Positions 2,577 through 21,273 are shown, counted from the stretch's first letter. The stretch is 64,000 bases of DNA from Escherichia coli (GCF_050920415.1 NZ_CP169309.1); one strand, 5' to 3'. The notes: a model not told the origin generated them from the sequence alone. Numbers and translations: made by a program.

Positions 2577-3527
2577 TTATAGTTTGACGGCAAGAAGATC
2601 TTCCAGTTTGCGTTGATCAACGGCGAACAGGCGGATGCCTTCAGAGAGTTTTTCTACCGCCATTGCATCCTGATTGTGCTCCCAACGGAACTCCGCTTCG
2701 CTCATCGGGGCTGGGCGTGGGAACGTCTGAGAAGGCGGGATTAATTTACGCACTACTGGAGAAACTTTTTCCTGCAGCTCCTTCAGCAAATTCGGCGCAA
2801 TAGTCAGTCGATCACAGCCGGTTAAGGCGAGGATTTGTTCGGTGCGACGGAAGCTCGCGCCCATTACAATGGTTTCGTAGTGGTGTTGCTTATAGTAGTC
2901 GTAGATATTGCGCACTGACTTAACGCCCGGATCTTCTTCCACCACATACGGGTCCATCGGCTTACGCGCCTGATACCAGTCATAAATACGCCCGACAAAC
3001 GGCGAAATCAGAAAAACGCCTGCTTCTGCACAGGCCCGCGCCTGAGCAAAAGAAAACAGTAGCGTCAGGTTGCAGTTAATACCTTCTTTTTCCAGTTCTT
3101 CTGCCGCGCGAATTCCTTCCCAGGTTGAAGCCAGCTTGATCAGAATACGTGATTTCTCAACGCCTTGTTGCTGATACAGGTCCACCAAATGGCGCGCCTT
3201 CTCAATACTTTTTTCTTTATCAAAAGAGAGGCGTGCATCAACTTCTGTTGACACGCGACCGGGTACGATTTTGAGAATTTCAGTGCCGAAATTGACCGCC
3301 AGTTTGTCACATGCAGCGACCACCTGTTGTTCCTGGGTCTTGCCATTTTTTTTACCCCAGGCGATAGCATCGTCTATTAAATGCTCATATTGTGATAATC
3401 CGGCAGCCTTGAGTAACAGCGAAGGATTGGTGGTGGCATCCTGGGGATGATAATGGCGAATGGACTCAATATCACCACTGTCTGCCACGACAGTGGTGAA
3501 CTGTTTGATGCCGTCTAACTCGTTCAT
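2577..3527 (-). CDS. talA: Transaldolase A
   Basis: 316 aa, [23 protein letters not shown]... transaldolase; talA-tktB operon arrangement. Confidence 0.93.
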
Positions 3528-3815: not shown

Positions 3816-6095
3816 ATGGATGACCAGTTAAAACAAAGTGCACTTGATTTCCATGAATTTCCAGTTCCAGGGAAAATCCAGGTTTCTCCAACCAAGCCTC
3901 TGGCAACGCAGCGCGATCTGGCGCTGGCCTACTCACCAGGCGTTGCCGCACCTTGTCTTGAAATCGAAAAAGACCCGTTAAAAGCCTACAAATATACCGC
4001 TCGTGGTAACCTGGTGGCGGTGATCTCTAACGGTACGGCGGTGCTGGGGTTAGGCAACATTGGCGCGCTGGCAGGCAAACCGGTGATGGAAGGCAAGGGC
4101 GTTCTGTTTAAGAAATTCGCCGGGATTGATGTATTTGACATTGAAGTTGATGAACTTGACCCGGACAAATTTATTGAAGTCGTCGCTGCGCTCGAACCGA
4201 CCTTCGGCGGCATCAACCTCGAAGACATTAAAGCGCCAGAATGTTTCTATATTGAACAGAAACTGCGCGAGCGGATGAATATTCCAGTATTCCACGACGA
4301 TCAGCACGGCACGGCAATTATCAGCACTGCAGCCATCCTCAACGGATTGCGCGTGGTGGAGAAAAACATCTCCGACGTGCGGATGGTGGTTTCCGGCGCG
4401 GGTGCAGCAGCAATTGCCTGTATGAACCTGCTGGTGGCGCTGGGGCTGCAAAAACATAACATCGTGGTTTGTGATTCAAAAGGCGTTATCTATCAGGGCC
4501 GTGAGCCAAATATGGCGGAAACCAAAGCCGCATATGCGGTGGTGGATGACGGCAAACGTACCCTCGATGATGTAATTGAAGGCGCGGATATTTTCCTGGG
4601 CTGTTCCGGCCCGAAAGTGCTGACCCAGGAAATGGTTAAGAAAATGGCTCGTGCGCCGATGATCCTGGCGCTTGCAAACCCGGAACCAGAAATTCTGCCG
4701 CCGCTGGCAAAAGAAGTGCGTCCGGATGCCATCATCTGTACCGGCCGTTCCGACTACCCGAACCAGGTTAATAACGTGCTTTGCTTCCCATTCATCTTCC
4801 GTGGCGCGTTGGACGTTGGTGCAACAGCCATCAACGAGGAAATGAAACTGGCGGCGGTACGCGCGATTGCAGAACTGGCCCATGCGGAACAGAGCGAAGT
4901 CGTTGCTTCGGCGTATGGCGATCAAGATCTGAGCTTCGGCCCGGAATACATCATTCCAAAACCGTTTGATCCGCGTTTGATCGTTAAGATCGCTCCTGCG
5001 GTCGCTAAAGCGGCGATGGAGTCGGGCGTGGCGACGCGTCCGATTGCTGATTTCGACGTCTACATCGACAAGCTGACTGAGTTCGTTTACAAAACCAACC
5101 TGTTTATGAAGCCGATTTTCTCCCAGGCCCGCAAAGCGCCGAAGCGCGTTGTTTTACCGGAAGGGGAAGAGGCACGCGTTCTGCATGCTACTCAGGAACT
5201 GGTGACTCTGGGACTGGCGAAACCGATCCTTATCGGTCGTCCGAACGTGATCGAAATGCGCATTCAAAAACTGGGCTTGCAGATCAAAGCGGGCGTTGAT
5301 TTTGAGATCGTCAATAACGAATCCGATCCGCGTTTTAAAGAATACTGGACCGAATACTTCCAGATCATGAAGCGCCGTGGTGTAACTCAGGAGCAGGCAC
5401 AGCGGGCGCTGATCAGTAACCCGACAGTGATCGGCGCGATCATGGTTCAGCGTGGCGAAGCCGATGCAATGATTTGCGGTACGGTGGGTGATTATCATGA
5501 ACACTTCAGCGTGGTGAAAAATGTCTTTGGTTATCGCGATGGCGTTCACACCGCAGGTGCAATGAACGCGCTGCTATTGCCGAGTGGTAACACTTTTATT
5601 GCCGATACCTACGTCAATGATGAGCCAGACGCAGAAGAGCTGGCGGAGATCACCTTGATGGCGGCAGAAACTGTTCGTCGTTTTGGTATTGAGCCGCGTG
5701 TGGCTCTGTTGTCGCACTCCAACTTTGGTTCTTCTGACTGCCCGTCGTCGAGCAAAATGCGTCAAGCGCTGGAACTGGTCAGAGAGCGTGCGCCAGAACT
5801 GATGATTGATGGTGAAATGCACGGCGATGCAGCGCTGGTGGAAGCGATTCGCAGCGATCGTATGCCGGACAGCCCTTTGAAAGGTTCCGCCAATATTCTG
5901 GTGATGCCGAACATGGAAGCTGCCCGTATTAGTTACAACTTACTGCGCGTTTCCAGCTCGGAAGGTGTGACTGTCGGTCCGGTGCTGATGGGTGTGGCGA
6001 AACCGGTTCACGTGTTAACACCAATCGCATCCGTACGTCGTATCGTCAACATGGTGGCGCTGGCCGTGGTTGAAGCGCAAACCCAACCGCTGTAA
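3816..6095 (+). CDS. maeB: NADP-dependent malic enzyme (malic enzyme domain fused to a phosphotransacetylase-like domain)
   Basis: 759 aa, [23 protein letters not shown]...; length and N-terminus match MaeB. Confidence 0.95.
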
Positions 6096-6112
6096 TTCAT
6101 TCTTAACTCTCA

Positions 6113-6145
6113 CGCTTACCCTGAATATTCAGGGTAAGCGGTTTT
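6113..6145 (+). terminator. Rho-independent terminator downstream of maeB
   Basis: Perfect palindrome cgcttaccctgaa tattcagggtaagcg followed by gtttt, 17 bp after the maeB stop. Confidence 0.7.
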
Positions 6146-6387
6146 ACTATAATATATTAGTAAAGCTTATTACTAAGTTTTCGAATAATAAAAAAAGCAG
6201 CATATAAACTATCTCGATATCATTTTATTTATATTCATGCGTTGCATATGAAAGTTTATGCATCACAGTAAATATCTCTCCATTCTTAGTGATCTACCTC
6301 ACCTTTTAAACGCGCTTGCCGAATTTTGTTATTTACTCTGACGAAAAATTGTCACGATACACGCAAGTTTTTCACAGGCGGCGACTT

Positions 6388-6723
6388 ATGGATAAAGAAC
6401 GCATCATTCAGGAATTTGTGCCCGGCAAACAGGTCACACTGGCGCATCTCATTGCGCATCCCGGCGAAGAACTGGCGAAGAAAATCGGCGTTCCGGATGC
6501 GGGCGCAATCGGCATTATGACGCTAACTCCCGGCGAAACGGCGATGATCGCCGGTGATTTAGCACTGAAAGCTGCCGATGTGCATATCGGTTTCCTCGAC
6601 CGTTTTAGCGGCGCACTAGTGATTTATGGCTCGGTGGGCGCAGTAGAAGAAGCGTTATCACAAACCGTCAGTGGTTTAGGTCGTTTATTAAATTATACGC
6701 TTTGTGAAATGACCAAAAGTTAA
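6388..6723 (+). CDS. eutS: Ethanolamine utilisation microcompartment shell protein EutS
   Basis: ORF 6316..6723 trimmed to ATG 6388 ([15 protein letters not shown]...), 111 aa BMC-domain protein; first gene of the eut operon. Confidence 0.9.
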
Positions 6724-6735
6724 TACGAGGCATTC

Positions 6736-7215
6736 ATGAAACGAATTGCGTTTGTGGGTACCGTCGGGGCAGGAAAAACAACGTTATTTAATGCGTTGCA
6801 GGGGAATTATACCCTCGCCAGAAAAACACAGGCCGTGGAATTTAATGATAAGGGTGATATTGATACGCCGGGTGAATATTTTAGCCATCCCCGCTGGTAT
6901 CACGCCTTAATTACCACGCTACAGGATGTGGACATGCTGATTTATGTCCACGGCGCGAATGACCCGGAAAGCCGATTGCCTGCCGGGTTGCTGGATATTG
7001 GTGCCAGCAAACGGCAAATCGCCGTCATCAGTAAAACGGACATGCCGGATGCTGACGTCGCAGCAACGCGAAAGTTATTGCTTGAAACTGGTTTTGAAGA
7101 GCCGATTTTCGAGCTAAACAGCCACGACCCGCAAAGCGTGCAGCAACTGGTGGATTATCTGGCATCTCTCACCGAACAGGAGGAAGCAGGTGAAAAAACT
7201 CATCACAGCGAATGA
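6736..7215 (+). CDS. eutP: Ethanolamine utilisation protein EutP (P-loop GTPase-like)
   Basis: 159 aa, Walker A motif GTVGAGKTT near the N-terminus. Confidence 0.9.
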   Translation: MKRIAFVGTVGAGKTTLFNALQGNYTLARKTQAVEFNDKGDIDTPGEYFSHPRWYHALITTLQDVDMLIYVHGANDPESRLPAGLLDIGASKRQIAVISKTDMPDADVAATRKLLLETGFEEPIFELNSHDPQSVQQLVDYLASLTEQEEAGEKTHHSE

Positions 7216-7891
7216 TATTCGTGAAGCACATGCGCGCGGCGAACAGGCAATGTCTGTGGTTCTGCGCGCCAGCATTATTACCCCGGAAGCCCGCGAAGTG
7301 GCGGACTTGCTGGGGTTTACCATCACCGAATGCACTGAATCGACGCCAGTAGCGGCATCTGTTCCCGTCAGCGTGCCTGCCGATAAAACTGAAAGCCAGC
7401 GTATCCGCGAAACCATCATCGCCCAGCTGCCGGAAGGCCAGTTTACCGAAAGCCTGGTCGCGCAGCTGATGGAAAAAGTGATAAAGGAAAAACAGTCGCT
7501 GGAGCAGGGTGCAATGCAGCCGAGTTTTAAATCGGTGACCGGCAAAGGCGGCATCAAAGTTATTGATGGCAGCAGCGTGAAGTTTGGTCGTTTCGATGGC
7601 GCGGAACCGCACTGCGTAGGCTTGACTGATCTCGTGACCGGAGACGACGGCAGCAGCATGGCCGCCGGTTTTATGCAGTGGGAGAACGCCTTCTTCCCGT
7701 GGACCCTGAACTACGACGAAATCGACATGGTACTGGAAGGGGAGCTTCATGTTCGCCATGAAGGCGAAACCATGATCGCTAAAGCAGGCGACGTGATGTT
7801 TATCCCGAAAGGTTCCAGCATCGAATTTGGTACGACATCCAGCGTGAAATTCCTGTATGTCGCCTGGCCGGCTAACTGGCAATCCCTATGA
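7190..7891 (+). CDS. eutQ: Ethanolamine utilisation protein EutQ (cupin-fold)
   Basis: 233 aa, MKKLITANDIREAHARGEQ...; overlaps eutP by 26 nt; operon position. Confidence 0.9.
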   Translation: MKKLITANDIREAHARGEQAMSVVLRASIITPEAREVADLLGFTITECTESTPVAASVPVSVPADKTESQRIRETIIAQLPEGQFTESLVAQLMEKVIKEKQSLEQGAMQPSFKSVTGKGGIKVIDGSSVKFGRFDGAEPHCVGLTDLVTGDDGSSMAAGFMQWENAFFPWTLNYDEIDMVLEGELHVRHEGETMIAKAGDVMFIPKGSSIEFGTTSSVKFLYVAWPANWQSL

Positions 7892-8691
7892 AAGATTTCA
7901 TCACCGAAGCATGGCTAAGAGCGAACCATACGCTCAGCGAAGGCGCAGAGATCCATCTCCCTGCGGACAGTCGCCTGACGCCCTCTGCCCGGGAGTTACT
8001 GGAAAGCCGCCATCTGCGCATCAAGTTTATTGACGAGCAGGGCCGCCTGTTTGTTGACGATGAACAGCAGCAGCTACAGCCCGTTCACGTGCTGACCAGT
8101 AGTGATGAACATCCGCAGGCGTGCTGCGAACTGTGTCACCAGCCAGTGGCGAAAAAGCCGGACACGCTGACTCACCTGTCGGCGGAAAAAATGGTCGCCA
8201 AAAGCGATCCGCGCCTGGGTTTTCGCGCTGTTCTCGACAGCACCATTGCGCTGGTAGTGTGGCTGCAAATTGAACTGACAGAACCGTGGCAGCCGTGGCT
8301 GGCGGACATCCGTTCGCGTCTTGGCAACATTATGCGTGCCGATGTGTTGGGCGAACCGCTGGGCTGCCAGGCGATTGTCGGGTTTTCTGACGAAGATCTG
8401 CATCGACTTTCTCACCAGCCACTGCGTTATCTCGACCACGATCATCTGGTGCCGGAAGCCAGCCACGGGCGCGATGCGGCGTTGCTGAATCTGCTACGCA
8501 CCAAAGTGCGGGAAACCGAAACCGTCGCGGCGCAGGTGTTTATTACCCGTAGTTTTGAAGTATTACGCCCGGACATCTTGCAGGCGCTGAACCGCCTTTC
8601 CAGCACGGTTTACGTGATGATGATTTTGAGCGTAACGAAGCAGCCGCTAACGGTGAAGCAGATCCAACAACGACTGGGGGAAACGCAATGA
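7888..8691 (+). CDS. eutT: Ethanolamine utilisation cobalamin adenosyltransferase EutT
   Basis: 267 aa; 4-nt overlap with eutQ; operon position. Confidence 0.9.
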
Positions 8692-9704
8692 TTATTGAAC
8701 GTTGTCGTGAACTGGCGTTGCGAGCGCCCGCCAGAGTGGTTTTTCCTGATGCGTTAGACCAACGCGTGCTGAAAGCCGCGCAATATCTGTATCAACAAAG
8801 TCTGGCGACGCCCGTTCTTATCGCCAATCCGTTTGAACTTCGCCAGTTTGCGCTCAGCCACGGCGTGGCGATGGACGGGCTACTGGTGATTGATCCTCGT
8901 AGCAACCTCGCAATGCGGGAAGAATTTGCTGACCGCTGGCAGGCCCGTGCGGGAGATAAAACGCCGTCGGATGCGCTGGAAAAACTTACCGATCCACTAA
9001 TGTTCGCCGCTGCGATGGTTAGCGCTGGTAAAGCGGATGTCTGTATTGCAGGCAACCTCTCTTCAACGGCAAATGTACTACGTGCCGGATTACGCGTTAT
9101 CGGCTTGCAGCCTGGCTGTAAAACGCTCTCCTCCATTTTCCTGATGCTGCCACAGTACAGCGGTCCAGCATTGGGCTTTGCCGATTGCAGCGTAGTGCCA
9201 CAGCCGACGGCGGCGCAGTTGGCGGATATCGCGCTTGCCAGCGCCGAAACCTGGCGAGCCATCACCGGAGAAGAGCCGCGCGTGGCGATGTTGTCGTTTT
9301 CCAGTAACGGCAGCGCCCGTCACCCCTGCGTTGCCAACGTGCAGCAAGCGACAGAAATCGTCCGTGAGCGCGCACCAAAGCTGGTCGTCGATGGCGAGTT
9401 GCAGTTTGACGCCGCCTTTGTGCCGGAAGTGGCGGCGCAAAAAGCGCCAGCCAGCCCGCTACAAGGCAAAGCCAATGTGATGGTTTTTCCGTCGCTGGAG
9501 GCGGGAAATATTGGCTACAAAATCGCACAACGACTTGGCGGATATCGTGCCGTCGGGCCATTGATACAAGGACTTGCCGCGCCGATGCACGATCTCTCTC
9601 GTGGTTGTAGCGTGCAGGAAATTATCGAGCTGGCGCTGGTGGCAGCCGTGCCGCGTCAGACAAAAGTGAACCGCGAAAGCAGTTTACAAACACTGGTTGA
9701 ATGA
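8688..9704 (+). CDS. eutD: Phosphotransacetylase EutD
   Basis: 338 aa PTA-family protein; 4-nt overlap with eutT. Confidence 0.9.
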
Positions 9705-9742
9705 ACGGTCCCGTTCTGGACCCCTATAAAGAGGAAAACACA

Positions 9743-10036
9743 ATGGAAGCATTAGGAATGATCGAAACCCGGGGCCTGGTTGCACTGATTGAGGCTTCTG
9801 ATGCGATGGTGAAAGCTGCGCGCGTCAAACTGGTTGGTGTTAAGCAGATTGGCGGCGGCCTGTGTACTGCCATGGTTCGCGGTGATGTTGCAGCCTGTAA
9901 AGCCGCGACCGATGCCGGTGCCGCAGCGGCACAGCGTATCGGTGAACTGGTATCCGTACATGTTATTCCGCGTCCGCACGGCGATCTGGAAGAGGTCTTC
10001 CCGATCGGCCTGAAAGGCGATAGCAGCAACCTGTAA
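9743..10036 (+). CDS. eutM: Microcompartment major shell protein EutM (BMC domain)
   Basis: ORF 9701..10036 trimmed to ATG 9743, which sits behind the RBS aaagaggaaa; [28 protein letters not shown]..., 97 aa. Confidence 0.9.
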
Positions 10037-10142
10037 TCACCCTGTGTGACGTCGATTCGGGCGTCACGCTCTCTCCTTTTTCAGTTTACCTTCCGCGGAG
10101 GGTAGGGGGAGCTTTTACCTGAAATACGCCACGGAGGCGGGT

Positions 10143-10430
10143 ATGAAACTGGCAGTCGTCACTGGACAAATTGTTTGTACCGTACGCCATCACGGACTGG
10201 CGCATGACAAATTGCTGATGGTGGAAATGATTGATCCACAAGGTAATCCTGACGGGCAATGCGCCGTCGCCATCGACAATATTGGCGCGGGAACCGGGGA
10301 GTGGGTGTTGCTGGTGAGTGGCAGTTCCGCCCGCCAGGCGCATAAAAGCGAAACGTCACCGGTCGATCTGTGCGTGATTGGCATCGTCGATGAGGTGGTC
10401 TCTGGCGGTCAGGTAATTTTCCACAAATAA
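10143..10430 (+). CDS. eutN: Microcompartment vertex protein EutN
   Basis: 95 aa, MKLAVVTGQIVCTVRHHGL...; EutN/CcmL-family pattern. Confidence 0.9.
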   Translation: MKLAVVTGQIVCTVRHHGLAHDKLLMVEMIDPQGNPDGQCAVAIDNIGAGTGEWVLLVSGSSARQAHKSETSPVDLCVIGIVDEVVSGGQVIFHK

Positions 10431-10441
10431 GGCAGAACATC

Positions 10442-11845
10442 ATGAATCAACAGGATATTGAACAGGTGGTGAAAGCGGTACTGCTGAAAATGCAAAGCAG
10501 TGACACGTCGCCCGCCGCCGTTCATGAGATGGGCGTTTTTGCTTCCCTGGATGACGCTGTTGCGGCAGCCAAAATTGCCCAGCAAGGGTTAAAAAGCGTG
10601 GCAATGCGCCAGTTAGCCATTGCTGCCATTCGTGAAGCAGGCGAAAAACACGCCAGAGATTTAGCGGAACTTGCCGTCAGTGAAACGGGTATGAGCCGCG
10701 TAGAAGATAAATTTGCCAAAAACGTCGCTCAGGCACGCGGTACGCCAGGCGTTGAGTGCCTCTCTCCACAGGTGCTGACCGGTGACAACGGCCTGACTTT
10801 AATTGAAAACGCGCCCTGGGGCGTGGTGGCTTCGGTGACGCCTTCCACTAACCCGGCGGCAACCGTAATTAATAACGCCATCAGCCTGATTGCCGCGGGC
10901 AACAGCGTCATTTTTGCCCCGCATCCGGCGGCGAAAAAAGTCTCTCAACGGGCTATTACGTTGCTCAACCAGGCGATTGTTGCCGCAGGCGGGCCGGAAA
11001 ACTTACTGGTTACTGTGGCAAATCCAGATATCGAAACCGCGCAACGTTTGTTCAAGTTCCCGGGTATCGGCCTGCTGGTGGTGACCGGCGGCGAAGCGGT
11101 AGTGGAAGCGGCGCGCAAACACACCAATAAACGTCTGATTGCCGCAGGTGCTGGCAACCCGCCGGTGGTGGTGGATGAAACCGCCGACCTCGCCCGTGCC
11201 GCTCAGTCTATCGTCAAAGGCGCTTCTTTCGATAACAACATCATTTGTGCCGATGAAAAGGTACTGATTGTTGTTGATAGCGTAGCCGATGAACTGATGC
11301 GTCTGATGGAAGGCCAGCACGCGGTGAAACTGACCGCAGAACAGGCGCAGCGACTGCAACCGGTGTTGCTGAAAAATATCGACGAGCGCGGAAAAGGCAC
11401 CGTCAGCCGTGACTGGGTGGGTCGCGATGCGGCGAAAATCGCGGCGGCAATCGGCCTGAACGTGCCGCAAGAAACGCGCTTGCTGTTTGTAGAAACCCCC
11501 GCAGAACATCCGTTTGCCGTGACCGAACTGATGATGCCAGTGCTGCCGGTCGTGCGCGTCGCCAACGTGGCGGATGCCATTGCGCTGGCGGTGAAACTGG
11601 AAGGCGGTTGCCACCACACGGCGGCAATGCACTCGCGCAATATCGAGAACATGAACCAAATGGCGAACGCCATTGATACCAGTATTTTCGTTAAGAACGG
11701 ACCGTGCATTGCCGGGCTGGGGCTGGGCGGGGAAGGCTGGACCACGATGACCATCACTACGCCAACCGGTGAAGGGGTAACCAGCGCGCGTACGTTTGTC
11801 CGTCTGCGTCGCTGTGTATTAGTCGATGCGTTTCGCATTGTTTAA
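10442..11845 (+). CDS. eutE: Acetaldehyde dehydrogenase (acetylating) EutE
   Basis: 467 aa aldehyde dehydrogenase-family protein; operon position. Confidence 0.92.
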   Translation: MNQQDIEQVVKAVLLKMQSSDTSPAAVHEMGVFASLDDAVAAAKIAQQGLKSVAMRQLAIAAIREAGEKHARDLAELAVSETGMSRVEDKFAKNVAQARGTPGVECLSPQVLTGDNGLTLIENAPWGVVASVTPSTNPAATVINNAISLIAAGNSVIFAPHPAAKKVSQRAITLLNQAIVAAGGPENLLVTVANPDIETAQRLFKFPGIGLLVVTGGEAVVEAARKHTNKRLIAAGAGNPPVVVDETADLARAAQSIVKGASFDNNIICADEKVLIVVDSVADELMRLMEGQHAVKLTAEQAQRLQPVLLKNIDERGKGTVSRDWVGRDAAKIAAAIGLNVPQETRLLFVETPAEHPFAVTELMMPVLPVVRVANVADAIALAVKLEGGCHHTAAMHSRNIENMNQMANAIDTSIFVKNGPCIAGLGLGGEGWTTMTITTPTGEGVTSARTFVRLRRCVLVDAFRIV

Positions 11846-11855
11846 GGAGTAACCG

Positions 11856-12692
11856 ATGGCGCACGACGAACAATGGCTTACCCCGCGGCTGCAAACGGCG
11901 GCAACGCTGTGTAACCAGACGCCCGCCGCGTCGGAATCTCCGCTGTGGCTGGGGGTAGATCTGGGCACCTGCGATGTGGTGTCGATGGTTGTCGACTGCG
12001 ACGGTCAGCCGGTGGCGGTATGTCTCGACTGGGCCGATGTGGTCCGCGACGGCATCGTCTGGGATTTCTTCGGTGCTGTCACCATTGTTCGTCGCCATCT
12101 CGATACCCTTGAGCAGCAATTTGGTCGCCGTTTTAGCCATGCGGCGACCTCATTTCCTCCTGGTACGGACCCGCGTATTTCCATCAACGTGCTGGAGTCT
12201 GCCGGGCTGGAAGTGAGCCATGTGCTTGATGAGCCAACCGCAGTCGCGGATCTACTGCAACTGGACAACGCCGGTGTAGTGGATATTGGCGGCGGCACTA
12301 CCGGAATTGCCATCGTGAAAAAGGGCAAGGTGACTTATTCAGCGGATGAAGCGACCGGCGGACATCACATTTCTCTGACTCTCGCCGGAAATCGCCGTAT
12401 TTCGCTGGAAGAGGCAGAGCAGTACAAGCGCGGTCACGGTGACGAGATTTGGCCTGCGGTGAAGCCGGTGTACGAAAAAATGGCGGACATTGTTGCCCGG
12501 CATATTGAAGGGGAGGGCATTACTGATTTATGGCTGGCGGGCGGCTCTTGTATGCAACCGGGCGTGGCGGAACTGTTTCGCAAACAATTCCCGGCGTTAC
12601 AGGTGCATTTACCGCAGCACAGTTTGTTTATGACCCCGCTGGCGATCGCCAGTAGCGGGCGAGAGAAAGCGGAGGGGCTATATGCAAAATGA
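11856..12692 (+). CDS. eutJ: Ethanolamine utilisation chaperone-like protein EutJ (actin/Hsp70-fold ATPase)
   Basis: 278 aa; DLGTCDVV and DIGGGTTGIA phosphate-binding motifs. Confidence 0.9.
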   Translation: MAHDEQWLTPRLQTAATLCNQTPAASESPLWLGVDLGTCDVVSMVVDCDGQPVAVCLDWADVVRDGIVWDFFGAVTIVRRHLDTLEQQFGRRFSHAATSFPPGTDPRISINVLESAGLEVSHVLDEPTAVADLLQLDNAGVVDIGGGTTGIAIVKKGKVTYSADEATGGHHISLTLAGNRRISLEEAEQYKRGHGDEIWPAVKPVYEKMADIVARHIEGEGITDLWLAGGSCMQPGVAELFRKQFPALQVHLPQHSLFMTPLAIASSGREKAEGLYAK

Positions 12693-13869
12693 ATTGCAGA
12701 CCGCGCTCTTTCAGGCGTTCGATACCCTGAATCTGCAACGGGTAAAAACATTTAGCGTTCCACCGGTGACGCTTTGCGGTCCGGGCGCGGTGAGCAGTTG
12801 TGGGCAGCAAGCGCAAACGCGTGGGCTGAAACATCTGTTCGTGATGGCAGACAGCTTTTTGCATCAGGCGGGGATGACCGCCGGGCTGACGCGCAGTCTG
12901 GCAGTAAAAGGCATCGCCATGACGCTCTGGCCGTGTCCGGTGGGCGAACCGTGCATCACTGACGTGTGTGCAGCCGTGGCGCAGTTGCGTGAATCAGGCT
13001 GTGATGGGGTGATCGCGTTTGGCGGTGGCTCGGTGCTGGATGCGGCAAAAGCCGTGGCGTTGCTGGTAACGAATCCCGATAGCACGCTGGCAGAAATGTC
13101 AGAAACCAGCGTTCTGCAACCGCGCCTGCCGTTGATTGCCATTCCAACTACCGCCGGAACCGGCTCTGAAACCACCAATGTAACGGTGATTATCGACGCG
13201 GTGAGCGGGCGCAAGCAGGTGTTAGCACATGCCTCGTTGATGCCGGATGTGGCGATTCTCGACGCCGCGCTGACCGAAGGTGTGCCGTCGCATGTCACGG
13301 CAATGACCGGTATCGACGCGTTAACTCATGCTATTGAAGCGTACAGCGCGCTGAACGCTACACCGTTTACAGACAGCCTGGCGATTGGCGCAATTGCGAT
13401 GATTGGTAAATCACTGCCGAAAGCAGTGGGCTACGGTCATGACCTTGCCGCGCGCGAGAGTATGTTGCTCGCATCATGCATGGCGGGAATGGCATTTTCC
13501 AGTGCCGGACTTGGGTTATGTCACGCGATGGCGCATCAGCCGGGGGCGGCGCTGCATATTCCGCACGGACTGGCGAACGCCATGCTGCTGCCCACGGTGA
13601 TGGAGTTTAACCGGATGGTCTGTCGCGAACGGTTTAGTCAGATTGGTCGGGCGCTGCGAACTAAAAAATCCGACGATCGTGATGCTATTAACGCGGTAAG
13701 TGAGCTGATTGCGGAAGTCGGGATTGGTAAACGGCTGGGCGATGTTGGCGCGACATCTGCGCATTACGGTGCATGGGCGCAGGCTGCGCAGGACGATATT
13801 TGTCTGCGTAGCAACCCGCGTACTGCCAGCCTGGAGCAGATCGTCGGCCTGTACGCGGCGGCGCAATAA
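12682..13869 (+). CDS. eutG: Iron-containing alcohol dehydrogenase EutG
   Basis: 395 aa; GGGSVLDAAKA motif typical of Fe-ADH. Confidence 0.9.
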   Translation: MQNELQTALFQAFDTLNLQRVKTFSVPPVTLCGPGAVSSCGQQAQTRGLKHLFVMADSFLHQAGMTAGLTRSLAVKGIAMTLWPCPVGEPCITDVCAAVAQLRESGCDGVIAFGGGSVLDAAKAVALLVTNPDSTLAEMSETSVLQPRLPLIAIPTTAGTGSETTNVTVIIDAVSGRKQVLAHASLMPDVAILDAALTEGVPSHVTAMTGIDALTHAIEAYSALNATPFTDSLAIGAIAMIGKSLPKAVGYGHDLAARESMLLASCMAGMAFSSAGLGLCHAMAHQPGAALHIPHGLANAMLLPTVMEFNRMVCRERFSQIGRALRTKKSDDRDAINAVSELIAEVGIGKRLGDVGATSAHYGAWAQAAQDDICLRSNPRTASLEQIVGLYAAAQ

Positions 13870-13870
13870 A

Positions 13871-14057
<187 letters not shown>

Positions 14058-14085
14058 AAATAACAACTAACAGGGAGTAAAGGCG

Positions 14086-15312
14086 ATGGGAATTAACGAA
14101 ATCATCATGTACATCATGATGTTCTTTATGCTGATAGCTGCCGTGGACAGGATCCTGTCGCAGTTCGGCGGTTCTGCTCGTTTCCTCGGTAAGTTCGGTA
14201 AAAGTATCGAAGGATCCGGCGGCCAGTTCGAAGAAGGCTTTATGGCAATGGGCGCACTGGGCCTGGCGATGGTCGGTATGACCGCACTGGCACCAGTTCT
14301 GGCCCACGTACTTGGGCCGGTGATTATCCCGGTTTACGAAATGCTCGGTGCTAACCCATCGATGTTCGCCGGAACACTGCTGGCGTGCGACATGGGCGGC
14401 TTCTTCCTCGCGAAAGAGCTGGCGGGCGGCGATGTGGCAGCGTGGCTATACTCTGGGTTAATTCTCGGATCGATGATGGGGCCAACGATTGTGTTTTCCA
14501 TTCCGGTGGCGCTCGGCATTATCGAACCTTCTGACCGTCGTTATCTGGCGCTCGGCGTGCTGGCGGGCATTGTGACCATTCCAATTGGCTGTATCGCTGG
14601 AGGTCTGGTAGCTATGTATTCCGGTGTGCAGATCAACGGGCAGCCGGTGGAATTCACCTTTGCGCTTATCCTGATGAATATGATCCCGGTACTTATCGTC
14701 GCGGTGCTGGTGGCGCTGGGGCTGAAATTCATCCCGGAAAAAATGATCAACGGCTTCCAGATCTTCGCCAAATTCCTCGTTGCATTGATCACCCTCGGTC
14801 TTGCCGCTGCGGTAGTGAAATTCCTCCTTGGCTGGGAACTGATCCCCGGTCTGGATCCGATCTTCATGGCTCCAGGCGACAAACCCGGTGAAGTGATGCG
14901 CGCCATTGAAGTTATCGGTTCTATCTCCTGCGTTCTGTTAGGGGCGTATCCGATGGTGCTGCTGCTGACACGCTGGTTTGAAAAACCGCTGATGAGCGTC
15001 GGTAAAGTGCTGAATATGAACAATATCGCGGCAGCCGGCATGGTGGCAACGCTTGCCAACAACATCCCGATGTTTGGCATGATGAAGCAGATGGATACCC
15101 GCGGCAAAGTCATCAACTGTGCCTTCGCCGTTTCCGCTGCTTTCGCCCTGGGTGACCACTTAGGCTTCGCCGCTGCCAACATGAACGCCATGATCTTCCC
15201 GATGATTGTCGGCAAGTTGATCGGCGGCGTAACGGCGATTGGCGTGGCGATGATGCTGGTGCCAAAAGAAGACGCGACCGCGGCTAAAACCGAAGCGGAG
15301 GCACAATCGTGA
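14086..15312 (+). CDS. eutH: Ethanolamine permease EutH
   Basis: 408 aa polytopic membrane protein; operon position. Confidence 0.9.
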   Translation: MGINEIIMYIMMFFMLIAAVDRILSQFGGSARFLGKFGKSIEGSGGQFEEGFMAMGALGLAMVGMTALAPVLAHVLGPVIIPVYEMLGANPSMFAGTLLACDMGGFFLAKELAGGDVAAWLYSGLILGSMMGPTIVFSIPVALGIIEPSDRRYLALGVLAGIVTIPIGCIAGGLVAMYSGVQINGQPVEFTFALILMNMIPVLIVAVLVALGLKFIPEKMINGFQIFAKFLVALITLGLAAAVVKFLLGWELIPGLDPIFMAPGDKPGEVMRAIEVIGSISCVLLGAYPMVLLLTRWFEKPLMSVGKVLNMNNIAAAGMVATLANNIPMFGMMKQMDTRGKVINCAFAVSAAFALGDHLGFAAANMNAMIFPMIVGKLIGGVTAIGVAMMLVPKEDATAAKTEAEAQS

Positions 15313-16712
15313 ACACTCGCCAGCTACTGAGCGTCGGTATCGATATCGGCACTACCACCACCCAGGTGATCTTCTCCCACCTGGAGCTGGTTAACCGTGC
15401 GGCGGTGTCGCAGGTGCCGCGCTACGAATTCATCAAACGCGAAATTAGCTGGCAAAGCCCGGTGTTCTTTACCCCTGTCGATAAACAGGGCGGTTTAAAA
15501 GAAGAGGAACTGAAATCCTTAATCCTCGAGCAATATCAGGCTGCGGGCATTGCGCCGGAAAGTGTGGATTCCGGTGCCATCATCATCACCGGCGAAAGCG
15601 CGAAAACCCGCAATGCTCGCCCGGCGGTGATGACGCTCTCTCAGTCGCTGGGCGATTTTGTCGTTGCCAGCGCTGGGCCGCATCTCGAATCCGTGATCGC
15701 CGGTCACGGTGCCGGGGCGCAAACCCTTTCTGAACAACGGTTATGTCGGGTACTGAATATCGACATCGGCGGTGGCACCGCGAACTACGCTTTGTTCGAT
15801 GCCGGAAAAATCAGCGGCACTGCCTGCCTTAACGTCGGCGGCCGCCTGCTGGAAACCGACAGCCAGGGACGCGTGGTTTACGCTCATATACCGGGGCAGA
15901 TGATTGTGGATGAGTGCTTCGGTGCAGGCACTGACGCCTGTTCACTGACCGGCGCGCAGCTGGTGCAGGTTACCCGGCGGATGGCGGAACTGATTGTCGA
16001 AGTGATTGACGGAACGCTCTCGCCGCTCGCGCAGGCATTGATGCAAACCGGTTTGCTGCCCGCAGGTGTTACGCCCGAAATCATTACGCTTTCTGGCGGC
16101 GTGGGCGAATGTTATCGCCACCAGCCCGCTGACCCGTTCTGTTTTGCCGATATTGGCCCGCTTCTGGCAACGGCGCTGCATGAGCATCCTCGTCTGCGTG
16201 AGATGAACGTGCAGTTTCCAGCGCAAACCGTGCGCGCCACGGTGATTGGCGCAGGCGCACATACCCTTTCGCTCTCTGGCAGCACAATCTGGCTGGAGGG
16301 GGTACAACTGCCGCTGCGCAATTTGCCGGTGGCGATCCCAATTGATGAAACGGATCTGGTGAGTGCCTGGCAACAAGCGCTAATTCAACTGGATCTTTGC
16401 CCCAAAACTGACGCGTACGTGCTGGCGCTTCCCGCCTCGCTGCCTGTGCGTTACGCCGCGGTACTGACGGTCATCAACGCGCTGGTCGATTTCGTCGCGC
16501 GTTTTCCGAATCCGCATCCCCTGCTGGTGGTGGCCGGGCAGGACTTTGGTAAAGCTCTGGGCATGTTGTTGCGTCCACAGCTACAACAACTCCCGTTGGC
16601 AGTCATTGACGAAGTGATTGTCCGCGCGGGGGACTATATCGACATTGGTACGCCTCTTTTTGGCGGATCGGTTGTGCCGGTGACGGTGAAATCACTCGCA
16701 TTTCCTTCCTGA
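15309..16712 (+). CDS. eutA: Ethanolamine ammonia-lyase reactivase EutA
   Basis: 467 aa; 4-nt overlap with eutH. Confidence 0.9.
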   Translation: MNTRQLLSVGIDIGTTTTQVIFSHLELVNRAAVSQVPRYEFIKREISWQSPVFFTPVDKQGGLKEEELKSLILEQYQAAGIAPESVDSGAIIITGESAKTRNARPAVMTLSQSLGDFVVASAGPHLESVIAGHGAGAQTLSEQRLCRVLNIDIGGGTANYALFDAGKISGTACLNVGGRLLETDSQGRVVYAHIPGQMIVDECFGAGTDACSLTGAQLVQVTRRMAELIVEVIDGTLSPLAQALMQTGLLPAGVTPEIITLSGGVGECYRHQPADPFCFADIGPLLATALHEHPRLREMNVQFPAQTVRATVIGAGAHTLSLSGSTIWLEGVQLPLRNLPVAIPIDETDLVSAWQQALIQLDLCPKTDAYVLALPASLPVRYAAVLTVINALVDFVARFPNPHPLLVVAGQDFGKALGMLLRPQLQQLPLAVIDEVIVRAGDYIDIGTPLFGGSVVPVTVKSLAFPS

Positions 16713-16723
16713 GGGAACGACTT

Positions 16724-18085
16724 ATGAAACTAAAGACCACATTGTTCGGCAATGTATATCAGTTTAAGGATGTAAAAGAGGTGCTGGCTAAAGCCAACGA
16801 ACTGCGTTCGGGGGATGTGCTGGCGGGCGTTGCAGCGGCAAGCTCACAGGAGCGCGTGGCGGCAAAGCAGGTGTTGTCGGAAATGACCGTAGCGGACATC
16901 CGCAATAATCCGGTGATTGCCTATGAAGATGACTGCGTTACGCGGTTGATTCAGGACGACGTTAACGAAACGGCATACAACCAGATTAAAAACTGGAGCA
17001 TCAGCGAACTGCGTGAGTATGTGCTGAGTGATGAAACCAGCGTTGACGACATTGCTTTTACCCGCAAAGGGCTGACCTCGGAAGTGGTCGCGGCGGTAGC
17101 GAAGATTTGCTCTAACGCGGACCTGATCTACGGCGCGAAGAAAATGCCGGTAATCAAAAAGGCCAATACAACTATTGGTATTCCGGGCACCTTCAGCGCC
17201 CGTTTGCAGCCAAACGATACCCGCGACGACGTGCAAAGTATCGCCGCGCAAATCTACGAAGGGCTTTCTTTCGGGGTGGGCGATGCGGTGATCGGCGTTA
17301 ACCCGGTGACTGACGACGTGGAAAACTTAAGCCGCGTGCTGGATACCATCTATGGCGTGATCGACAAATTCAACATTCCGACCCAGGGCTGCGTGCTGGC
17401 GCACGTTACTACCCAGATTGAAGCGATCCGTCGCGGCGCGCCGGGCGGGCTGATTTTCCAGAGCATCTGCGGCAGCGAAAAAGGGCTGAAAGAATTTGGC
17501 GTGGAGCTGGCGATGCTCGATGAAGCACGCGCAGTGGGCGCAGAGTTTAACCGTATCGCCGGGGAAAACTGCCTCTACTTCGAAACCGGGCAGGGTTCTG
17601 CGCTATCGGCGGGCGCTAACTTCGGTGCAGATCAGGTAACGATGGAAGCGCGTAACTACGGGCTGGCACGTCATTACGATCCGTTTATCGTCAACACCGT
17701 AGTGGGCTTTATTGGGCCAGAGTATCTCTACAACGACCGGCAGATTATCCGTGCGGGCTTAGAAGATCACTTTATGGGCAAACTGAGCGGCATTTCTATG
17801 GGCTGTGACTGCTGCTACACCAACCACGCTGACGCTGACCAGAACCTCAACGAAAACCTGATGATCCTGCTCGCCACCGCAGGCTGTAACTACATCATGG
17901 GGATGCCGCTGGGTGATGACATCATGCTCAACTACCAGACTACGGCCTTCCACGACACCGCCACTGTGCGTCAGTTACTCAACCTGCGCCCGTCACCGGA
18001 GTTTGAACGCTGGCTGGAAAGCATGGGCATTATGGCAAACGGTCGCCTGACCAAACGGGCGGGCGATCCGTCACTGTTCTTCTGA
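16724..18085 (+). CDS. eutB: Ethanolamine ammonia-lyase heavy chain EutB
   Basis: 453 aa; starts 12 bp after the eutA stop. Confidence 0.93.
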   Translation: MKLKTTLFGNVYQFKDVKEVLAKANELRSGDVLAGVAAASSQERVAAKQVLSEMTVADIRNNPVIAYEDDCVTRLIQDDVNETAYNQIKNWSISELREYVLSDETSVDDIAFTRKGLTSEVVAAVAKICSNADLIYGAKKMPVIKKANTTIGIPGTFSARLQPNDTRDDVQSIAAQIYEGLSFGVGDAVIGVNPVTDDVENLSRVLDTIYGVIDKFNIPTQGCVLAHVTTQIEAIRRGAPGGLIFQSICGSEKGLKEFGVELAMLDEARAVGAEFNRIAGENCLYFETGQGSALSAGANFGADQVTMEARNYGLARHYDPFIVNTVVGFIGPEYLYNDRQIIRAGLEDHFMGKLSGISMGCDCCYTNHADADQNLNENLMILLATAGCNYIMGMPLGDDIMLNYQTTAFHDTATVRQLLNLRPSPEFERWLESMGIMANGRLTKRAGDPSLFF

Positions 18086-18105
18086 TGACGCGGAGATAAC
18101 ACATC

Positions 18106-18993
18106 ATGGATCAAAAACAGATTGAAGAAATTGTACGCAGCGTGATGGCGTCAATGGGACAAGCGGCCCCCGCGCCGTCAGAAGCAAAATGCGCCACTAC
18201 CACCTGTGCAGCACCGGTGACCTCGGAAAGCTGCGCGCTGGATTTAGGTTCCGCAGAAGCAAAAGCGTGGATTGGCGTTGAAAACCCGCATCGCGCAGAC
18301 GTATTAACAGAACTGCGCCGCAGCACCGTGGCTCGCGTCTGTACCGGTCGTGCCGGTCCGCGTCCGCGTACCCAGGCGTTGCTGCGTTTCCTGGCCGATC
18401 ACTCTCGTTCGAAAGACACCGTACTGAAAGAAGTGCCGGAGGAGTGGGTGAAAGCGCAGGGCTTGCTGGAAGTCCGCTCTGAAATTAGCGACAAAAATCT
18501 CTATCTGACTCGCCCGGATATGGGCCGCCGCTTGTGTGCAGAGGCTGTTGAAGCGCTGAAAGCGCAGTGTGTTGCCAATCCGGACGTACAGGTGGTTATT
18601 TCCGATGGTCTATCTACTGATGCGATCACCGTGAACTATGAAGAGATTCTGCCACCGCTGATGGCGGGCCTGAAACAGGCCGGGTTGAAAGTCGGCACAC
18701 CGTTCTTTGTGCGTTACGGTCGCGTGAAGATTGAAGATCAGATTGGCGAACTTCTTGGCGCGAAAGTGGTGATCCTGCTGGTGGGTGAACGTCCGGGGTT
18801 GGGGCAGTCAGAAAGTCTCTCCTGCTACGCCGTTTACTTGCCGCGTATGGCAACCACCGTTGAGGCCGACCGTACCTGTATCTCTAACATTCACCAGGGC
18901 GGCACGCCGCCGGTTGAAGCCGCAGCCGTCATTGTGGATTTGGCGAAACGTATGCTGGAGCAGAAAGCATCCGGCATCAACATGACCCGATAA
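18106..18993 (+). CDS. eutC: Ethanolamine ammonia-lyase light chain EutC
   Basis: 295 aa; operon position. Confidence 0.92.
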
Positions 18994-19002
18994 GGAGGCA
19001 TC

Positions 19003-19662
19003 ATGCCAGCTTTAGATTTGATTCGACCGTCGGTAACCGCCATGCGGGTGATTGCCTCTGTTAACGCCGAATTTGCGCGTGAACTGAAATTGCCGCCGCA
19101 TATTCGTAGCCTCGGGCTGATTTCTGCTGATTCCGATGACGTCACCTACATTGCGGCTGACGAAGCGACCAAGCAGGCGATGGTTGAAGTCGTGTATGGT
19201 CGCTCGCTGTATGCGGGAGCTGCACACGGGCCGTCACCGACTGCCGGTGAAGTGCTGATTATGCTCGGGGGGCCAAACCCGGCGGAAGTGCGTGCCGGTC
19301 TGGATGCGATGGTTGCGCATATTGAAAATGGCGCTGCTTTCCAGTGGGCTAATGATGCAGAAAACACAGCCTTCCTGGCGCATGTCGTTTCGCGTACCGG
19401 CTCTTATCTCTCATCAACCGCCGGGATCACGCTTGGCGATCCGCTGGCGTATCTGGTGGCACCGCCGCTGGAAGCGACCTACGGCATTGATGCAGCGTTG
19501 AAATCTGCCGACGTGCAGCTGGTGACCTATGTCCCGCCACCGTCTGAAACCAACTACTCGGCAGCATTTTTAACCGGTAGCCAGGCCGCGTGTAAAGCAG
19601 CCTGTAACGCCTTTACCGATGCAGTGCTGGAAATCGCGCGTAATCCAATCCAGCGTGCGTAA
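19003..19662 (+). CDS. eutL: Microcompartment shell protein EutL (tandem BMC domains)
   Basis: 219 aa; operon position. Confidence 0.9.
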
Positions 19663-19674
19663 CGGAGGTTGCCG

Positions 19675-20175
19675 ATGATCAATGCACTGGGATTGCTGGA
19701 AGTGGACGGCATGGTCGCCGCGATAGATGCAGCTGATGCCATGCTCAAAGCAGCTAACGTTCGTCTGCTCAGTCACGAAGTGCTTGACCCTGGTCGCCTA
19801 ACGCTGGTGGTGGAAGGCGATCTGGCGGCGTGTCGTGCGGCGCTGGACGCAGGTTGTGCTGCCGCGATGCGTACCGGGCGTGTCATCAGCCGTAAGGAGA
19901 TCGGTCGGCCAGACGATGACACCCAGTGGCTGGTTACTGGCTTTAACCGCCAACCGAAGCAACCCGTAAAGGAACCCGACGCGCCAGTTATCGTCGCGGA
20001 ATCTGCTGACGAGTTGTTGGCGCTGTTAACATCAGTACGTCAGGGAATGACGGCAGGAGAAGTGGCTGCCCACTTTGGCTGGCCGCTGGAAAAAGCCAGA
20101 AATGCGCTCGAACAGCTCTTTTCTGCCGGGACGTTACGTAAACGCAGTAGTCGTTATCGTCTCAAGCCCCATTAA
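19675..20175 (+). CDS. eutK: Microcompartment shell protein EutK
   Basis: ORF 19669 (TTG) trimmed to ATG 19675 behind a ggagg RBS; MINALGLLEVDGMVAAIDAADAM..., 166 aa. Confidence 0.88.
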   Translation: MINALGLLEVDGMVAAIDAADAMLKAANVRLLSHEVLDPGRLTLVVEGDLAACRAALDAGCAAAMRTGRVISRKEIGRPDDDTQWLVTGFNRQPKQPVKEPDAPVIVAESADELLALLTSVRQGMTAGEVAAHFGWPLEKARNALEQLFSAGTLRKRSSRYRLKPH

Positions 20176-20220
20176 CCTGTCGGAGGTGCCGGGTGTCCTA
20201 CAACACCCGGCATTAACATC

Positions 20221-21273
20221 ATGAAAAAGACCCGTACAGCCAATTTGCACCATCTTTATCATGAACCCTTACCCGAAAACCTGAAGCTCACGCCGAAGGT
20301 CGAAGTGGATAATGTTCATCAACGACAGACAACGGATGTCTATGAACATGCTTTGACGATTACCGCCTGGCAGCAGATTTACGATCAGCTGCATCCGGGC
20401 AAGTTTCATGGTGAATTTACGGAAATTCTACTCGATGATATTCAGGTTTTTCGTGAATACACCGGTCTGGCGCTGCGTCAGTCGTGCCTGGTCTGGCCGA
20501 ACTCGTTCTGGTTTGGCATTCCGGCGACGCGCGGTGAGCAGGGATTTATCGGTTCGCAATGTCTGGGAAGCGCAGAAATTGCGACACGCCCTGGAGGAAC
20601 CGAGTTTGAATTAAGTACGCCGGACGATTACACGATCCTTGGCGTGGTGCTTTCTGAAGATGTCATCACCCGTCAGGCTAACTTTTTGCATAACCCGGAA
20701 AGGGTGCTGCATATGTTACGTAACCAGTCGGCGCTGGAAGTGAAAGAGCAGCATAAAGCCGCGCTGTGGGGCTTTGTCCAACAGGCTCTGGCGACATTTT
20801 GCGAGAACCCGGAAAATCTCCATCAGCCTGCAGTGCGAAAAGTGCTGGGGGATAATTTGCTAATGGCGATGGGGGCGATGCTGGAAGAAGCGCAGCCAAT
20901 GGTGACGGCGGAAAGTATCAGCCACCAGAGTTACCGTCGCTTGTTGACCCGCGCGCGTGAATATGTGCTGGAGAATATGTCCGAACCGGTAACCGTGCTG
21001 GATTTGTGCAATCAACTGCATGTCAGCCGCCGCACGCTACAAAACGCGTTTCACGCTCTTTTAGGCATTGGCCCAAACGCGTGGCTGAAACGCATTCGCC
21101 TGAACGCCGTGCGCCGCGAACTGATAAGCCCGTGGTCGCAAAGTACAACGGTCAAAGATGCCGCCATGCAGTGGGGATTCTGGCATCTGGGGCAATTCGC
21201 CACGGATTACCAGCAACTGTTTGCCGAGAAGCCGTCTCTGACGCTACATCAGCGGATGCAGGAACTGGAGTGA
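20221..21273 (+). CDS. eutR: AraC-family transcriptional activator of the eut operon, EutR
   Basis: 350 aa; C-terminal AraC-type HTH region; last gene of the operon. Confidence 0.9.

Follow-up and report, generated by a model that had tools for sequence, protein, structure and literature searches.

A conserved promoter core upstream of the Escherichia coli eut operon, with a CRP site, a probable EutR operator and a predicted extended -10 element

The DNA analysed here, referred to as the window, is a stretch of 64,000 nucleotides from Escherichia coli (NZ_CP169309.1, assembly GCF_050920415.1) that carries talA (2577-3527, minus strand), maeB (3816-6095, plus strand) and then the complete eutSPQTDMNEJGHABCLKR operon (6388-21273, plus strand), in which eutP through eutR follow eutS as contiguous plus-strand open reading frames ending at 21273. 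For a strain whose intergenic sequence is identical to that of the window, the RefSeq annotation likewise begins eutS at ATG 6388. Within the operon, eutA (15309-16712) adjoins eutB (16724-18085), so that this strain is without the CPZ-55 prophage that splits the eut operon of K-12, and its operon looks intact. The maeB and eutS genes are 95.7% and 95.5% identical to their K-12 counterparts, an unusual degree of divergence for core genes of E. coli, and the stretch from maeB into eut looks like a minority haplotype, possibly a recombinant one; E. whittamii and two further Escherichia species encode an EutS protein of the same sequence. The features discussed below are as follows, by position in the window.

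6113-6140, plus strand: intrinsic terminator-like hairpin of maeB, CGCTTACCCTGAAT/ATTCAGGGTAAGCG, found by a terminator scan and followed by GTTTTAC.
6146-6270, no strand assigned: hypervariable, Escherichia-specific AT-rich spacer, 24% G+C and poorly conserved.
6286-6306, centre 6295.5, no strand assigned: CRP binding site ttAGTGAtctaccTCACCttt, a 21-mer identical to one bound by CRP in K-12 DNA.
6316-6336, plus strand: probable EutR operator TTGCCGAATTTTGTTATTTAC, invariant in 46 loci and overlapping the -35 region at a predicted -49 to -29.
6350-6358, plus strand: predicted extended -10 element TGtCACGAT (hexamer 6353-6358), with conserved A at -11 and T at -7.
6365, plus strand: predicted transcription start (A), 7 nt past the -10 hexamer, placed there by a conserved CA.
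6365-6387, plus strand: predicted short, unstructured 5' leader of 23 nt, with a weak Shine-Dalgarno sequence, AGGCGG, at 6376-6381.
6388-6723, plus strand: eutS, first gene of the operon, matching the NCBIfam model NF012012 (EutS) with 247 bits over residues 1-111 of 111.
20221-21273, plus strand: eutR, encoding the AraC-family activator at the end of the operon, matching the EutR equivalog model NF007522 with 782 bits against a cut-off of 319.

The gap between maeB and eutS measures 292 nt (6096-6387) and begins with the maeB hairpin, whose 14-nt arms form a perfectly complementary inverted repeat that is kept across Escherichia. Past the terminator, the 242 nt from 6146 to 6387 have a G+C content of 31.8%, well below that of maeB (53%) or of the window (51.5%) and in the bottom 1% among all 242-nt windows of the 64-kb stretch. 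This confirms an earlier, sequence-only reading of the locus, which had described about 240 bp of AT-rich DNA between the maeB terminator and the eutS start. The composition is uneven, however, rising from 24% G+C in 6146-6270 to 38% in 6271-6364 and 48% in 6365-6387.

Comparison across genomes divides this interval into two compartments. The gap as a whole has a match in 5408 of 5426 complete E. coli genomes, but the allele found in the window is rare, with at least 99% identity in only 70 of 5409 matching records and 90-95% identity in most. The upstream 125 nt (6146-6270) yield a megablast match in only 3637 of the 5426 genomes, nearly all at 90-95% identity, whereas 5005 E. coli records carry the 94 nt of 6271-6364 with at least 99% identity, and an O157:H7 strain matches them at 93 of 94 positions. 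The gap of the window shows 21 differences from K-12, 19 of them upstream of 6271 and none within 6271-6363, in a region where the flanking maeB and eutS genes, unlike this conserved core, differ by 4.3-4.5%. One Escherichia lineage (L006) has lost 56 bp from the AT-rich part, and most Citrobacter, Klebsiella and Yokenella have a shorter gap, of about 158-160 bp, in which the terminator nearly touches the conserved core; the spacer of about 125 bp is absent from Salmonella, Citrobacter and Klebsiella, which share the same core promoter. A consensus scan of 6146-6270 found no promoter-like site on either strand. Because the spacer is variable and confined to Escherichia while the core is conserved, we regard the AT-richest DNA as a lineage-specific spacer and not as promoter, and only the downstream 100 bp or so (6271-6364) as conserved DNA with a probable promoter function. 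The earlier view of the whole AT-rich stretch as a promoter region thus holds for the core, whereas its AT-richest 125 bp are non-conserved spacer, and that view missed the CRP site described below. Nor is "leader" an apt name for the interval: most of the 240 bp would be untranscribed, with a predicted leader of about 23 nt (47 nt under a rival start site considered below).

To resolve the core we retrieved 63 eutS loci, one genome per species, and aligned a set of 46 sequences from 11 enterobacterial genera, made up of 44 retrieved loci together with the window and K-12. The alignment is gapless from the CRP site to the -10 element (6286-6358), with a 1-nt insertion in Citrobacter koseri (L065) as the sole exception, while the distance from this conserved module to the eutS ATG ranges from 64 to 82 nt among the 46 loci. 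Three elements are conserved, namely an upstream block at 6288-6303 (block A), a downstream block at 6316-6336 (block B) and a hexamer at 6353-6358, and the distance from the GTGA of block A to the start of block B is always 27 bp. At least two strains carry an IS1 in the gap, one at the equivalent of about 6321, inside the predicted EutR box (E. coli PSJ-32-1, L072), and the other at the equivalent of about 6145, just past the maeB terminator, with a deletion through eutE (E. coli GDSC2239PM, L073); both insertions should abolish normal eut regulation or function. In Buttiauxella gaviniae (L041), fragments resembling the EutR C-terminus (77-85% identity over 20-39 aa) lie at 2792-2979 of the retrieved locus, only about 1.3 kb downstream of the eutS start, which points to a eut operon that is truncated or has lost a large internal part.

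The interval almost certainly contains the eut promoter P1, which Salmonella genetics had already established. In Salmonella and EHEC, P1 lies immediately upstream of eutS and is induced by EutR with ethanolamine and adenosylcobalamin (PMC5821096, PMC4643982, PMC8565329), and binding of EutR to P1 is reported for these organisms from EMSA, DNase I footprinting and ChIP (PMC5821096, PMC4643982). A review places the EutR footprint "just upstream of the -35", in agreement with a site proposed by comparative genomics (PMC5821096). Together with the cross-species comparison, this literature supports the sequence-only reading in its proposal that the main eut promoter, dependent on EutR with ethanolamine and B12, would be found here, and P1 almost certainly lies somewhere within 6286-6387. 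Whereas EutR binding in EHEC was known and the CRP site dates from 2026, what the present analysis adds is a predicted start site, the probable assignment of the two blocks to different proteins and the likely occurrence of the EutR box across proteobacterial classes.

Block A, AGTGATCTACCTCACC (6288-6303), is a GTGA-N6-TCAC palindrome. A full-text literature search with its sequence returned one paper, a 2026 preprint from the Wade laboratory, in which CRP binds the same 21-mer upstream of K-12 eutS in vitro, the inferred Kd being 9.0 nM (Footprint-seq Table 1, PMC12871828); since the site was first reported in 2026, it is absent from earlier site compilations. The sequence AGTGA-N6-TCACC agrees with the CRP consensus TGTGA-N6-TCACA at 8 of 10 positions. 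As a bare motif, GTGA-N6-TCAC is found twice in the 64 kb against 0.76 expected, which is not significant (the other exact match is at 27942-27955, GTGAACATCTTCAC), so that the weight is carried by the in vitro binding and by conservation, GTGA-N6-TCA being kept in all 46 enterobacterial loci at its fixed 27 bp from the EutR box, rather than by the motif alone. On this evidence block A is a CRP site. We also considered an FNR site, but the block matches TTGAT-N4-ATCAA at only 7 of 10 positions, fewer than for CRP, for which binding has been measured. The reported suppression of eut expression by glucose (PMC7617246) and a Salmonella regulon table that names crp as a regulator of eut (PMC11000858) agree with a CRP site. 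Beyond the Enterobacterales, block A is absent, at the enterobacterial offset, from the eut promoters of five distant proteobacterial taxa. The Iodobacter locus L042 does have a CRP-like palindrome, TGTGT-AAATTT-GCACG, 8-23 nt upstream of its EutR-like box and 5 bp closer to that box than the enterobacterial CRP site, which may reflect independent recruitment of a CRP-family protein or chance.

Block B is the most conserved element of the promoter core, with TTGCCGAnnTTTGTTAT invariant in 46 of 46 sequences from 11 genera. Diverged copies of it (TTGCCGATnTTTGATA) are present upstream of distant eutS genes, with further substitutions in L048, L049 and L058.

Telmatospirillum (Alphaproteobacteria): TTGCCGATATTTGATA.
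Iodobacter (Betaproteobacteria): TTGCCGATTTTTGATA.
Pseudomonas nicosulfuronedens (Gammaproteobacteria): TTGCCGATTTTCGATA.
Ventosimonas (Gammaproteobacteria): TTGCCAATATTTGATA.
A soil metagenome-assembled genome (Proteobacteria): GTGCCGATTCTTGATA.

The Iodobacter and Pseudomonas operons, the only two traced to their ends, are colinear with that of E. coli and both finish with an EutR orthologue, an AraC-family protein of 352-358 aa whose best NCBIfam match is EutR (309 and 390 bits, respectively) and whose helix-turn-helix segments are conserved. Since the motif travels with eutR across classes and the CRP-like block does not, block B would be the site of the dedicated regulator, and we consider it most likely to be the EutR operator. 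The search for an EutR motif suggested by the sequence-only reading thus has a probable answer in the box at 6316-6336, which is the only exact match to TTGCCGAATTTTGTTATTTAC in the 64-kb window; no second box (for example near eutR) was found there at up to one mismatch. A full-text literature search with the box sequence gave no match, and the EutR motif is not given in the Klebsiella paper or its supplements. The published EutR footprint may correspond to the CRP block instead of block B. Only one EutR-type half-site is evident in the box; many AraC-family activators bind two. In Iodobacter (L066/L070) and in Pseudomonas nicosulfuronedens (L068/L071) the eut operon is divergent from a gene for a TonB-dependent receptor, followed in Iodobacter by genes for cobalamin salvage and transport, and in the Pseudomonas nicosulfuronedens operon eutR is preceded by two additional genes, one RnfC-like and the other for a BMC shell protein.

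For the core promoter, a scan of both strands from 5900 to 6700 found no consensus sigma-70 promoter, as is expected of, and hence uninformative about, a promoter that depends on an activator. Plain promoter prediction, as proposed by the sequence-only reading, gave no site; the candidate at 6350-6358 comes from comparison. To obtain it we scored a -10 matrix at every offset from the start of the box in 47 unique sequences. An A at -11 combined with a T at -7 occurs at offset 37 in 89% of them and at offset 38 in 13%, so that the two offsets together account for practically every sequence. The hexamer at 6353-6358 reads CACGAT in the window and CACTAT, CAGCAT, CAGTAT, TAGGAT or TAGCAT elsewhere; a TG one base upstream, as in an extended -10 element, accompanies it in 40 of the 41 loci with a C-initial hexamer and is absent from the 5 loci with TAGGAT or TAGCAT, which retain the T at -12. 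In four of the five distant taxa, too, the -10 hexamer that scores best anywhere downstream of the box lies at offset 37 or 38 (TAAGAT, TAGTAT, TAGCCT, TATCAT). Further downstream, within a variable stretch, a CA dinucleotide is conserved at box offsets 48-49, 7 bases past the hexamer. From the conserved A and T, the pattern of the TG, the hexamers of the distant taxa and the CA, we infer that TGtCACGAT is the -10 element and A6365 the start site, although CACGAT has only 3 of the 6 positions of the -10 consensus. The box at 6316-6336 is a fixed 37 bp from this -10 candidate, in a layout counted from the predicted start, and no -35 hexamer scoring at least 4/6 is present at a spacing of 16-18 bp. 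Two other candidates were rejected, namely AAAAAT (6344-6349) as a -10 element, which is not conserved beyond close relatives (about 70% have the A at -11 and T at -7, and AGAGTG or AGAGCG is found in others), and TTGCCG (6316-6321) as a -35 element, which is followed at 16-18 bp by TGACGA, an unconserved sequence, and not by a -10 element. The Cappable-seq and D23580 supplements contain no eutS start-site entry.

Taken together, we favour a layout in which CRP would occupy 6286-6306 and EutR 6316-6336, with TGtCACGAT as the -10 element and a start near A6365, and we give it a probability of roughly two in three. Its predictions as to which block EutR binds, where the -10 element and the start lie and how activation is arranged are all read here from comparative sequence. 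In the mechanism we propose, sigma-70 RNA polymerase would use the extended -10 element without a usable -35 and start at about A6365, and the missing -35 would make the promoter dependent on EutR. Once made competent by ethanolamine and adenosylcobalamin, EutR would bind the box at about -49 to -29, overlapping the -35 region, a position usually taken by the promoter-proximal subunit of AraC-family activators. At the same time cAMP-CRP would bind AGTGA-N6-TCACC in a class-I-like position, with its centre at about -69.5 to -70.5, which would account for glucose repression. Canonical CRP centres lie near -61.5, -70.5/-71.5 and -82.5; with a start between 6365 and 6367 the centre at 6295.5 corresponds to -69.5 to -71.5, and at -69.5 it is 1-2 bp off the canonical -70.5/-71.5. 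More speculatively, the alpha subunit of RNA polymerase could touch, through its C-terminal domain, the conserved TTTTAAA (6304-6310) that lies between the two sites.

The alternative that survives best, although we think it unlikely, is that P1 starts at about A6341, giving a 47-nt leader, from an extended -10 element TGtTATTTA (6327-6335), which falls inside block B, and a weak -35 near 6306-6312, with EutR on the block at 6286-6306 and the in vitro CRP binding either competing with EutR or irrelevant in vivo. It arises from a Salmonella CsrA study in which the eutS RNA spanned -47 to +48, counted from the start codon, and was made with a primer beginning ACAAAAAATTGCCACGATG (PMC10433801). 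The end of this RNA is homologous to 6341 in the window, 24 nt upstream of 6365, and may reflect a mapped start; the coordinates of that paper, however, are relative to translation, and -47 is not called a mapped start (PMC10433801). TG-n-TAT, within 6327-6335, is invariant in all 46 loci, and an EutR footprint just upstream of the -35 would suit 6286-6306 if the -10 element were at 6330-6335. Against this, none of the 46 loci has a T at position -7 of TATTTA (A, G or C is found instead), the invariant TTGCCGA would fall in the spacer at -25 to -19 and its conservation would go unexplained, as would that of the nAnnAT at 6353-6358 and the distant -10 hexamers at the same offset, and the CRP centre would be at a non-canonical -45.5. 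Moreover, the block at 6286-6306 is absent from the eut promoters of Iodobacter, Pseudomonas and Telmatospirillum, although the first two operons encode EutR orthologues.

An improbable reading makes the spacer 6146-6270 itself regulatory, as a site of H-NS nucleation and silencing, or of a lineage-specific factor, that tunes eut expression among E. coli lineages. Its 24% G+C would be in keeping with this, and it holds TCGATATCAT (6214-6223), which matches at 8 of 10 positions TCGATATATT, which we take to be the high-affinity H-NS motif; H-NS may bind at TCGATATCAT within DNA of such composition. The spacer also contains TGCATA-N8-TATGCA (6243-6262), an inverted repeat that the window shares with K-12 and the locus L005 and that two other Escherichia species retain in part. 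This repeat, which falls inside the 56 bp missing from L006, may be a protein-binding site. Yet the spacer is the least conserved part of the region, it is missing from Salmonella, Citrobacter and Klebsiella despite their having the same core, it is partly deleted in one Escherichia lineage, and no binding data for it were found.

We see little prospect, too, for a reading in which an EutR dimer would span both blocks, with a distal half-site within 6286-6310 and a proximal one at 6316-6336, in the manner of AraC at I1-I2. Many AraC/XylS activators (as in the AraC, RhaS and XylS systems) do occupy about 40 bp, from -35 to -75, and the 27-bp spacing of the blocks is rigid in 46 of 46 loci; the CRP site would then overlap the distal half-site, which CRP and EutR would share or compete for. 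The two blocks, however, show no convincing direct or inverted repeat (at a 21-bp offset there are 7-8 matches over 17-21 positions), the distant operons that contain eutR retain the proximal block only, and CRP has a measured affinity for the distal block, a palindrome close to the CRP consensus.

The transcript itself offers little structure. The leader varies between genera in length and sequence and is poorly conserved, and it folds no better than shuffled sequences (z = +1.66 for 6365-6420 and +0.60 for 6341-6420); an Rfam scan at E <= 10 gave only chance-level matches, the best at E = 0.41 and far below the gathering score. In Salmonella, CsrA binds the homologous eutS leader with a Kd of 5.7 nM and activates expression (PMC10433801); the sole GGA in the leader of the window is at the start codon. 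That the interval encodes a cis-regulatory leader RNA (riboswitch or attenuator), as B12-sensing RNA elements control eut in Firmicutes (PMC5821096), can be set aside on the Rfam and folding results and the variable length and sequence of the leader, as can, with the same very low probability, an N-terminally extended EutS from TTG 6316, which opens a 135-aa reading frame through the open in-frame stretch 6316-6387. The conserved operator begins at that TTG. In 39 of 46 loci either a stop codon interrupts the extension or the equivalent TTG lies in another frame; an open extension with an in-frame TTG is confined to Yokenella and to six Escherichia sequences including the window. The EutS family model, moreover, begins at M6388. 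TTG 6316 is not a real start, and the doubt already cast on this extension by the sequence-only reading was well placed.

Among known systems, the promoter corresponds to P1 of the eutSPQTDMNEJGHABCLKR operon of Salmonella and EHEC, its core being nearly identical to that of an O157:H7 strain. From the CRP block to the -10 hexamer it differs from the Salmonella promoter only in poorly conserved stretches between the elements, and otherwise in no substantive way other than the addition of the variable AT-rich spacer of about 125 bp. We also entertain, as a possibility on the doubtful side, the wider proposition that the "EutR site" of comparative genomics and footprinting would be two adjacent, rigidly spaced sites for different proteins, a CRP site specific to Enterobacterales and an ancient EutR operator TTGCCGA-N5-G(A/T)TA common to eut operons of Alpha-, Beta- and Gammaproteobacteria, that transcription would start about 24 nt downstream of the 5' end taken in recent work on the Salmonella leader, and that the AT-rich spacer could vary basal eut silencing among E. 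coli lineages.

The predicted arrangement resembles that of araBAD, rhaBAD and melAB, where a ligand-dependent AraC-family activator sits at the -35 region (as predicted here), with CRP upstream in fixed helical phase and a weak core promoter. CRP is centred at -93.5 at araBAD and at -92.5 at rhaBAD, upstream of two activator half-sites, whereas in the window it would adjoin a single activator box of about 21 bp, with a predicted centre near -70. Class I CRP promoters, such as lac P1 (CRP at -61.5) and malT (-70.5), offer a second comparison, the window having a near-consensus site of nanomolar affinity about 70 bp upstream of the predicted start (+/- 2 bp). Unlike at these promoters, CRP alone cannot suffice at eut P1, since expression is barely detectable without EutR (PMC10433801). 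The eut genes of Enterococcus and Listeria respond to the same signals, ethanolamine and B12, but do so at the RNA level, by EutVW antitermination and an adenosylcobalamin riboswitch sRNA (EutX/Rli55), whereas the leader in the window has neither a riboswitch nor a terminator-antiterminator structure.

A genome scan could be expected to turn up this promoter, whose operon has been studied in depth. Pathogens and commensals of the gut compete better when they use ethanolamine, and P1 switches the whole 17-gene microcompartment operon. A correct map of P1, with the places of EutR, CRP and the transcription start, would aid the interpretation of EutR and CsrA binding studies, the engineering of the native promoter, as has been proposed for E. 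coli Nissle, and the prediction of strains in which regulation has been lost through IS1 insertions or deletions in the maeB-eutS gap.
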